NCBI GenBank assembly: GCA_029856365.1
Contig: JAHQWW010000015.1
Coordinates: 1-52,783, forward strand
Direction of reading: 5' to 3'
DNA: 52,783 nt
From: Candidatus Hodarchaeota archaeon
GTDB lineage: Archaea > Asgardarchaeota > Heimdallarchaeia > Hodarchaeales > Hodarchaeaceae
Made by a program: the position numbers and the translations under genes. The notes under the pieces are model-generated. The model was not told where the DNA came from and ran no database searches. It saw only the letters and a program-made list of their open reading frames with translations. Position 1 is the first letter of the stretch, and each line of letters begins with the position of its first letter. Shown one piece after another: positions 22,108 to 23,133 of this stretch.

Positions 22108-23133
22108 TTATTTGGATGTAAAGTCTCGGACACCCTCGGTGGTAATCGCAAACTCAATTTTTCCATCAGGTAGCTCAGGACTTTTTGTTAACGAGGCAGT
22201 ACGTTTGACTGCTTTTCCCTTCCGGATGAAAATACGGGTAGTCACCGTATGACCAACAATATTGCCGCCAACAGGCTTATTCGGGTCTCCAAAGAACATT
22301 GCCTCAGGTTTAGCTGAGACTTGATTAGTCACGACACCAACACAATTCATTATTTCTGCTTGTTTGGCAATAAACGCTAAATATTTTCCAATCAGTTGTT
22401 GACGTTCAGCCAGTGTCCCGCGTCCTGCGAACTCGCTCCTAAAATGTGACATGAGAGAATCTACGATTATCAGACCAATGTTTGGAACCATAGTGAGCGC
22501 TTCTTCGGTGAGTGCCATCTGATGTTCACTATTGTAAGCTCTACCAACCGTAATTCTTGATAGTACTGTGTCTGGATCTATATCTAATGCCTCTGCCATT
22601 TGGACTATTCGATTGAACCTGAATGTCCCCTCTGAGTCGATCCAAATCACATCCTGATCGAGGTACTTTACACAATTGACTGCCAATTGGTGGGCAATTT
22701 GGGTCTTACCACATCCATTTTCTCCCGCAACTTCTGTGACACTTCCTGTCTCAAATCCTCCTCCAATAAGTTTGTCGAACGCTTTCGACCCTGTGGTTAA
22801 TTTTACCCGTGTTTTAGCTGCTTCTTCATAGTCTGTTCCTTTTTTCAATCCAAGGTCAAACTGTACCCTTGCTTCACGTATCAAAAGAGCTGCGGTTTTC
22901 TCTGCAATACCAGAAATTTCAGTTAATTGAGCCCGTGTTGCTAATGCAATCGCTTCTCGGCTTCCATACCCCGCTGTCTCTAACCTTTGTCTTGTAGTTG
23001 GACCTATGCCTGTTATTGTCTCTAAGAACGGTTTCTCTGAGGTTGTGGTCTTTTTTTTGCTCTTCTTTGTTTTTTTTATTTCAACTGGCTCTGGACTAAT
23101 TCCTTCTTCTTTTGTTTCGACTTTTGCCATCAT
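22108..23133 (-). CDS. radA: RadA/Rad51-family recombinase (divergent)
   Basis: N-terminal HhH (GIGP), TTGS..FD.L.GGG.ETG, GENGCGKTQ, IDSEGTF, IIVDSL, GRGTLAERQQ, TNQV, GGNIVGH. Confidence 0.9.
   Translation of the reverse strand: MMAKVETKEEGISPEPVEIKKTKKSKKKTTTSEKPFLETITGIGPTTRQRLETAGYGSREAIALATRAQLTEISGIAEKTAALLIREARVQFDLGLKKGTDYEEAAKTRVKLTTGSKAFDKLIGGGFETGSVTEVAGENGCGKTQIAHQLAVNCVKYLDQDVIWIDSEGTFRFNRIVQMAEALDIDPDTVLSRITVGRAYNSEHQMALTEEALTMVPNIGLIIVDSLMSHFRSEFAGRGTLAERQQLIGKYLAFIAKQAEIMNCVGVVTNQVSAKPEAMFFGDPNKPVGGNIVGHTVTTRIFIRKGKAVKRTASLTKSPELPDGKIEFAITTEGVRDFTSK

Follow-up and report, generated by a model that had tools for sequence, protein, structure and literature searches.

Archaeal RadA and eukaryotic RAD51 conserve an ATP-cap aspartate at the price of poorer recombinase activity, while RecA and the RAD51 paralogs have a lysine in its place; why this is so has been probed by point mutants. 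In RAD51 this aspartate, D316, binds a second cation, which bridges to the gamma-phosphate of the neighbour's ATP and folds the L2 loop; after hydrolysis the cation leaves, F129 turns into the gap and pushes L2 aside, and the DNA is freed (PMC10192527). The same work describes the D316K substitution as stabilising the RAD51 filament and improving recombinase activity, and the RadA mutant D302K as active without salt (PMC10192527); a further study reports a sharpened preference of RAD51 D316K for ssDNA (PMC3753615). A lysine finger occupies the ATP cap in each of the four BCDX2 paralogs, as K324 in RAD51B and K328 in RAD51C (PMC7614784), and in the BCDX2 subunits the FxxA pocket is occluded (PMC13186703). 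The RAD51 mutant II3A forms filaments and does not form D-loops, a phenotype that depends on the joint loss of R130, R303 and K313 (PMC6764946; PMC11106524). Duplication of RadA in Heimdallarchaeia has already been published, with the duplicated Asgard clades of Matsuo et al. 2025 (PMC12722695); that study includes one Hodarchaeales genome, and its Results and Discussion do not mention cap, Walker A or operon features. Asgard recombinase diversity has also been surveyed (bioRxiv 10.1101/2025.02.19.639135), and the passages available from that survey contain neither a full-length RadA with a Lys cap nor the RadA-helicase operon described below. Our literature search, with subscription journals outside its coverage, found no description of a Lys-cap RadA clade.

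The Hodarchaeales count among the nearest relatives that eukaryotes are known to have, and the order has been proposed as sister to them. The DNA analysed here, which we call the window, is a 52,783-nucleotide stretch of a Hodarchaeales contig; its source assembly is 84% complete and belongs to the genus of Ca. Hodarchaeum. The window encodes a RadA paralog (P0001) with the following features.

22108 to 23133, minus strand: RadA paralog gene, a single full-length open reading frame encoding 341 residues
22867 to 23025, minus strand: N-terminal HhH domain (residues 37-89; Pfam HHH_5, E 9.8e-14)
22837 to 22848, minus strand: polymerisation motif L96-x-x-G99 with Phe changed to Leu (L96 codon TTG, 22846-22848)
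22702 to 22725, minus strand: Walker A (residues 137-144), K143 and T144 intact, N139 in place of RAD51 F129 and G140 in place of R130
22630 to 22632, minus strand: catalytic Glu168 (RAD51 E163), kept and invariant in the clade
22459 to 22461, minus strand: Walker B Asp225, kept and invariant
22396 to 22443, minus strand: L1 DNA-binding loop region, canonical, with R238 and R244 (RAD51 R235 and R241)
22249 to 22326, minus strand: L2 region of canonical archaeal type, with Q271, P276 and H295 (RAD51 Q268, V273 position and H294)
22192 to 22194, minus strand: Ser314 at RAD51 K313 (secondary DNA site), where most clade members have a non-basic residue
22183 to 22185, minus strand: Lys317 of the ATP cap (RAD51 D316, M. 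voltae D302), codon AAA

The protein displays the RAD-alpha architecture, an HhH domain and a RecA core with Walker A and B motifs, the catalytic Glu and the arginines of L1/L2. It scores 359.5 bits against the RadA model PRK04301 (cut-off 259) and 339.7 bits against TIGR02236 (cut-off 361.15), and the RadB model TIGR02237 reaches 111 bits, far under its cut-off of 172.4. The best sequence and fold matches are the archaeal RadAs of M. voltae (1T4G) and P. furiosus (1PZN), and the alignment to solved RadAs is gap-free across the ATP-cap and FxxA sites. A first-pass annotation of this DNA had called the DNA-binding loops canonical, and rightly so: the L1 arginines and Q271, P276 and H295 of L2 are present, and the clade of orthologs as a whole retains K143, E168, D225, Q271, H295 and the L1 arginines. 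Two other peculiarities on its list are real but carry little information. The Lys-rich N-terminal tail occurs also in P. furiosus RadA and in canonical Asgard RadAs and shows no conservation within the paralog clade, and the LPxxxGG insert after the Walker A helix is missing from many ordinary Asp-cap RadAs as well. A copy of the tail and HhH domain of the paralog, at about 50-56% identity and closer to it than to canonical RadA, opens a 679-residue SF2 helicase-like protein found in two genomes only (G000 contig C71, L207:2-919, and G012, L212:370-2409, both on the minus strand). The single-chain model of P0001 is of moderate quality (pLDDT 69.7), with Walker A, L1 and L2 poorly predicted, so that no geometry was taken from the predicted structure. 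A promoter and terminator scan at the locus stayed at chance level.

The central claims of the first-pass annotation, that the ATP-cap Asp has been replaced by Lys and the FxxA Phe by Leu, are both borne out. The gap-free alignment puts K317 at M. voltae D302, in a column that holds Lys in the engineered D302K mutant 3NTU and Asp in wild-type 1T4G; L96 occupies the column of the FxxA Phe of M. voltae RadA and is flanked by identical residues. The unusual Walker A motif, GENGCGKT, had also been recognised, while the resulting loss of Phe129 was overlooked. These residues are not a matter of chance: K317 is invariant in all 50 clade members covering the site, against Asp in 280 of 309 other RadA-family sequences. 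N139 is likewise invariant (52/52, against F or Y in 279/309), as is L96 (52/52, against Phe in 234/309); Gly at the fourth FxxA position is also present in M. voltae RadA and says little. The codons for K317 and L96 show no differing letter in contigs from four public runs, which rules out an assembly error as the source of these substitutions.

Could they merely mark a duplicate gene in decay or under neutral drift, devoid of any property of its own? The paralog clade sits on a long stem branch in the IQ-TREE phylogeny, the paralog was not found in one 93%-complete genome, and the ortholog of the 99%-complete genome G007 (L035:5995-7020) has one in-frame TAG after codon 181, either a nonsense change or an assembly error. 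Against decay, pairwise dN/dS, as read from the least saturated pairs only, is as low in the paralog clade (0.014-0.050) as in the canonical copies (0.018-0.046). The codons of K317, N139 and L96 vary across the clade though the residues stay invariant, the cap Lys being encoded by both Lys codons, eight times each, in 16 genomes, and the ortholog set in the protein database comprises about 40 clusters at 90% identity. Such a fate is largely refuted by the selection data, and we consider it very improbable.

Nor do the substitutions belong to a single housekeeping RadA of the lineage, since canonical copies are held by both the source genome and the single-contig genome G009. The former encodes one intact canonical RadA, with Asp cap and Phe, on contig C34; the latter has five RadA-like genes, namely three canonical ones, the K317 paralog and one that is more degenerate. 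The presence of Asp/Phe RadAs in the same genome means that P0001 is not the housekeeping gene, and the status of paralog implied by the first-pass annotation is thereby upheld: it is almost certainly a functional paralog with a non-housekeeping role. Orthologs with 70-91% identity occur in 17 of the 22 genomes of the genus, and in a 150-genome sample of the phylum no genome outside the genus has a match near the ortholog scores. Two further RadA sequences, both possibly products of misassembly, are a canonical RadA on contig C91 (C91:1-1575, L002), with Asp and Phe kept and the last strands replaced by an unrelated helical extension, and an orphan C-terminal fragment with the cap Asp kept on contig C52 (C52:2800-2988, L004). 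A fifth, more degenerate RadA-like clade (L058, L061, L063, L073) is found in Hodarchaeales and other Heimdallarchaeia, and combines altered L1, L2 and linker with a retained Asp cap.

What is the relationship of the paralog to the lysine-bearing RAD51 paralogs? In an IQ-TREE phylogeny run with the trait columns masked and composed without RadB or RAD51-paralog rows, the Lys+Asn clade (support 99/92) lies inside a Leu clade (100/100), which in turn is placed inside the Asgard/TACK-type/eukaryote RadA/Rad51 group (99/98). Seven of the eight other Leu-clade rows have Asp and all eight have an aromatic residue at position 129, and the outgroups are alike, so that parsimony makes Lys and Asn the derived states; the tree gives no firm order for the deepest branches of the Leu clade. 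The paralog clade is separate from the canonical Hodarchaeales RadAs and is not sister to Rad51/DMC1, a sisterhood that appeared in a FastTree midpoint picture and is not borne out by IQ-TREE. Transfer from Euryarchaeota or DPANN (best matches of 48-52%) finds no support in the tree.

The first-pass annotation was correct that RAD51B and RAD51C carry the cap Lys naturally, but its placement of the protein between the core recombinases and the RAD51 paralogs does not survive comparison. P0001 scores 218 bits against RAD51 and 53 bits against human RAD51B and RAD51C, for which the canonical RadA of the same genome reaches 72 bits; profile-profile scores to the paralogs agree (79-90 for P0001, 96-112 for canonical RadA), and the protein nests among mostly Asp/Phe RadAs. 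A search with its C-terminal cap region alone did not retrieve RAD51C. Descent of RAD51C or other paralogs from P0001 was rejected in view of the scores, and on this evidence the clade is not ancestral to any eukaryotic protein. Since P0001 nests among Asp-cap RadAs and scores low against RAD51B/C, the lysine finger common to it and RAD51B/C/D and XRCC2 is best read, from these sequence comparisons, as convergence.

Outside the clade, cap Lys accompanies 7 of the 12 sequences with Asn at the 129 position and 3 of about 275 with Phe or Tyr. Coevolution of the two changes was nevertheless rejected as a claim: only three independent pairs lie on well-supported branches, too few to make the association more than a trend, as opposed to a tested result. 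One Asn129 and Lys-cap RadA is encoded on a tailed-virus contig (L156:8001-9044), which also carries portal, major head, primase, exonuclease and PCNA-like genes; this viral protein retains Lys at the K313 position, and its relatives P0207 and P0252 have the same Asn and Lys pair. A Lys cap with a non-aromatic residue at 129 is also seen in two eukaryotic records (P0260 and P0206), a Mycotypha africana protein named RAD51 and a foraminiferan protein. No clade members were found in IMG/VR, where about 30 contigs (L171-L201) hold RadAs of a closely related family that retains both Phe and Asp.

The first-pass annotation envisaged a paralog that caps or stabilises filaments, and the two halves of this suggestion fare differently. 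A capping subunit in the manner of the RAD51 paralogs would sit at the end of canonical RadA filaments, or sparsely within them, and would not self-polymerise. The Lys finger of RAD51B/C/D/XRCC2 (PMC7614784) and the Ile of XRCC3 at the Phe position (PMC13186703) are in line with such a role, for which the genus offers three canonical RadAs as partners. Yet both the donor motif and the acceptor pocket are retained in P0001, and L1 and L2 are canonical. By alignment, the pocket positions I163, I165, G197, L208, A212 and M215 are hydrophobic or small, with nothing like the occlusion of the BCDX2 type. The six residues used for this comparison are those that we take, from the BRC4 complex, to line the Phe pocket of RAD51; a published description matches the list in part (PMC5117717). 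Residues 96-98 are predicted as a short strand in the single-chain model. Leu at the donor position is also tolerated elsewhere, the only RadA detected in five genomes of the Asgard family f17 (L103, L104, L106, L110, L121) having Leu at the FxxA Phe, Thr at K313 and an Asp cap. For roles of this kind the genus, moreover, has other genes, RadA-like and RadB-like, that are much more degenerate. Capping is therefore not favoured, and we hold it to be unlikely. Each side of the contact between filament subunits seems serviceable, and an intact donor motif and acceptor pocket favour self-polymerisation; with its catalytic residues, L1/L2 and FxxA pocket intact, P0001 should polymerise and not cap. 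Stabilisation is the half that stands, as the behaviour of D316K and D302K in the mutant studies predicts a stable, cation-independent filament (PMC10192527, PMC3753615). Judged by these residues, P0001 is probably a self-polymerising former of cation-independent filaments.

A feature overlooked by the earlier reading concerns the secondary DNA site, where two of the three II3A positions (R130/R303/K313) of P0001 are non-basic. In the clade the K313 position holds T in 42 sequences, S in 5 and H in 3, against R or K in 271 of 309 others. The number of basic residues at the three positions is 1 (n=47) or 0 (n=3) in the clade and 3 (n=42) or 2 (n=5) in canonical Asgard RadAs. Outside Asgard the R130 position most often holds Gly (172/309), active RadAs included, which leaves K313 as the only unusual basic loss, and the secondary-site patch keeps about 6 basic residues in the clade vs 6.8 in other RadAs.

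These counts bear on the possibility that the paralog acts as a second recombinase, fully active in the manner of RecA, efficient without salt and dedicated with the neighbouring helicase and a dead HerA-fold protein to one pathway, such as incoming DNA or a class of lesions. The nearly fixed loss of K313 and the fixed loss of R130, set against the two or three basic residues kept by Asgard canonical copies, weigh against it. Its strengths are that the catalytic and site-I residues are all intact, that D316K and D302K are active or improved (PMC10192527), and that an Asn+Lys RadA is carried by a virus which also encodes a primase, an exonuclease and a PCNA, which suggests that the pair may serve a stand-alone recombinase and counts against an accessory role. 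Further arguments come from the surroundings of the gene.

20310 to 22052, minus strand: XPD/DinG-like Fe-S helicase of 580 residues (DEAD_2 and Helicase_C_2)
17268 to 19190, plus strand: degenerate Hef-like gene converging on the RadA/helicase pair (Hef PRK13766, 83 bits, cut-off 610)
23319 to 28127, plus strand: gene for a large surface protein with Ig folds, arranged head-to-head with that of RadA (weak Big_3/Big_13 matches)

In 12 of 13 loci the Ig-fold gene stands at this place. The head-to-head arrangement of the RadA gene with a surface-protein operon, and the occurrence of related helicase genes among large surface-protein genes in other Heimdallarchaeia, speak for a second recombinase; none of the tests made ties the surface genes to DNA transfer. 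Altogether we regard this explanation as possible but doubtful. The related genes are those of G028 and G034 (L160-L163) and six more Heimdallarchaeia genomes, in which a helicase homolog and a divergent RadA-like gene are 24-33 kb apart; in G028 and G034 very large surface-protein genes are situated in between, and the same interval includes a RadB-like gene in G028 and possibly a HerA-like gene in G034.

The Fe-S helicase gene lies 55 bp downstream of the paralog gene on the same strand, and its four Cys, Walker A Lys and DExH are invariant. It follows the paralog in 12 of 13 loci, the remaining locus ending at a contig edge, and every one of the 17 genomes with the paralog has an ortholog of it. 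Neither gene was found in G002, G006 and G021 (71-93% complete), and in two more genomes, G004 and G008, the helicase locus begins at a contig edge. The predicted complex of the two proteins scored 0.01, a value that speaks neither for nor against an interaction. The helicase may be the working partner of the paralog, a pairing to which we assign somewhat less than an even chance. In several members of the genus, in the Asp-cap sisters and in a distant Lys-cap member a gene for a product of 760-880 residues stands between RadA and helicase. Its product resembles HerA/VirB4 ATPases (Atlas features and models), lacks the Walker A Lys and the Walker B acids, and is confined to Hodarchaeales among the 41 genomes searched. 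As this gene order is common to the Asp-cap sisters and the distant Lys-cap member, the operon is older than the Lys cap. In the source genome the degenerate HerA/VirB4-fold gene, ancestrally the middle one of the operon, is unlinked (contig C41:2303-4897, L135), and a distant paralog of it is found on contig C165. In 7 of 13 loci the Hef-like gene is a neighbour of the pair; in the window it has no recognisable Walker A, and between it and the helicase come a gene with a PIN domain and a short remnant resembling TPR (17268-19190, 19234-19644). A defence system was considered and rejected, PADLOC giving only generic DinG and weak ATPase matches.

How might such a protein work? The best reading of the sequence evidence, which we consider about evenly balanced between right and wrong, is that the paralog assists the canonical RadAs by forming a long-lived filament on ssDNA without need of cations. 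The protein would be a lineage-specific accessory RadA with a rewired off-switch, in which Lys317 stands in for the cation and Asn139 removes the Phe lever. It would assemble alone on ssDNA, independently of K+/Ca2+ and selectively for ssDNA, and release the DNA slowly because the fixed Lys replaces the cation and the lever is gone. With one of the three II3A basic residues left it would perhaps also be poor at capturing duplex DNA, and hence hold, protect or nucleate on ssDNA, leaving most of the homology search to canonical RadAs; an accessory role with weak strand invasion has, on these residues, roughly equal odds for and against. The co-inherited helicase would supply ssDNA or clear the filament. 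The suggested effect of Phe129 to Asn derives by analogy from one structure paper, and the change could also weaken the active packing of L2.

We hypothesize, tentatively and with doubt outweighing confidence, that a division of labour comparable to that of Rad51/Dmc1, or of RAD51 and its paralogs, arose independently in Hodarchaeales, with a lever-less lysine-finger RadA forming stable, poorly invading filaments in a three-gene module with the Fe-S helicase and a dead HerA-fold scaffold, and with loss of Phe129 and gain of cap Lys as a recurrent route. If true, this recurrence, with the paralog clade, the tailed virus and the protein annotated as fungal RAD51 as its cases, shows how paralog-type ATP sites arise from recombinases. 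P0001 offers, without engineering, a full-length RadA in which Lys has become fixed. Sisters with an Asp cap that occupy the same operon, and the canonical RadAs of its own genome, can serve as controls, so that the parts played by the second cation site and the Phe129 lever are open to direct test. The paralog also shows that recombinases have specialised in an archaeal order proposed as sister to eukaryotes.

P0001 agrees with archaeal RadA (1T4G, 1PZN; PRK04301) in the order of its domains, Walker A/B, catalytic Glu, L1/L2, the counterpart of His294 and the FxxA pocket; it differs in the cap Asp changed to Lys, Phe129 to Asn, the FxxA Phe to Leu and a non-basic K313 position, and in being an additional copy beside ordinary RadAs. 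With RAD51B/C/D and XRCC2/3 (BCDX2, CX3) it has in common the cap lysine finger (PMC7614784) and a residue other than Phe at the FxxA position (PMC13186703), whereas its scores to them are 4-5 times lower than to RadA/RAD51 and no closer than those of canonical RadA, its pocket is not occluded and its L1/L2 are recombinase-like. Rad51-II3A, with its accessory role beside Dmc1, likewise keeps the filament residues and has fewer basic residues at the secondary site, a functional analogy only, as just two of the three positions are changed in P0001 and one of these changes is common in active archaeal RadAs. The nearest counterparts at the ATP cap are RadA D302K (3NTU) and RAD51 D316K, which have the identical substitution in the same column; in P0001 the Lys is natural and fixed under selection, and it is joined by the change of Phe129 to Asn that 3NTU lacks.
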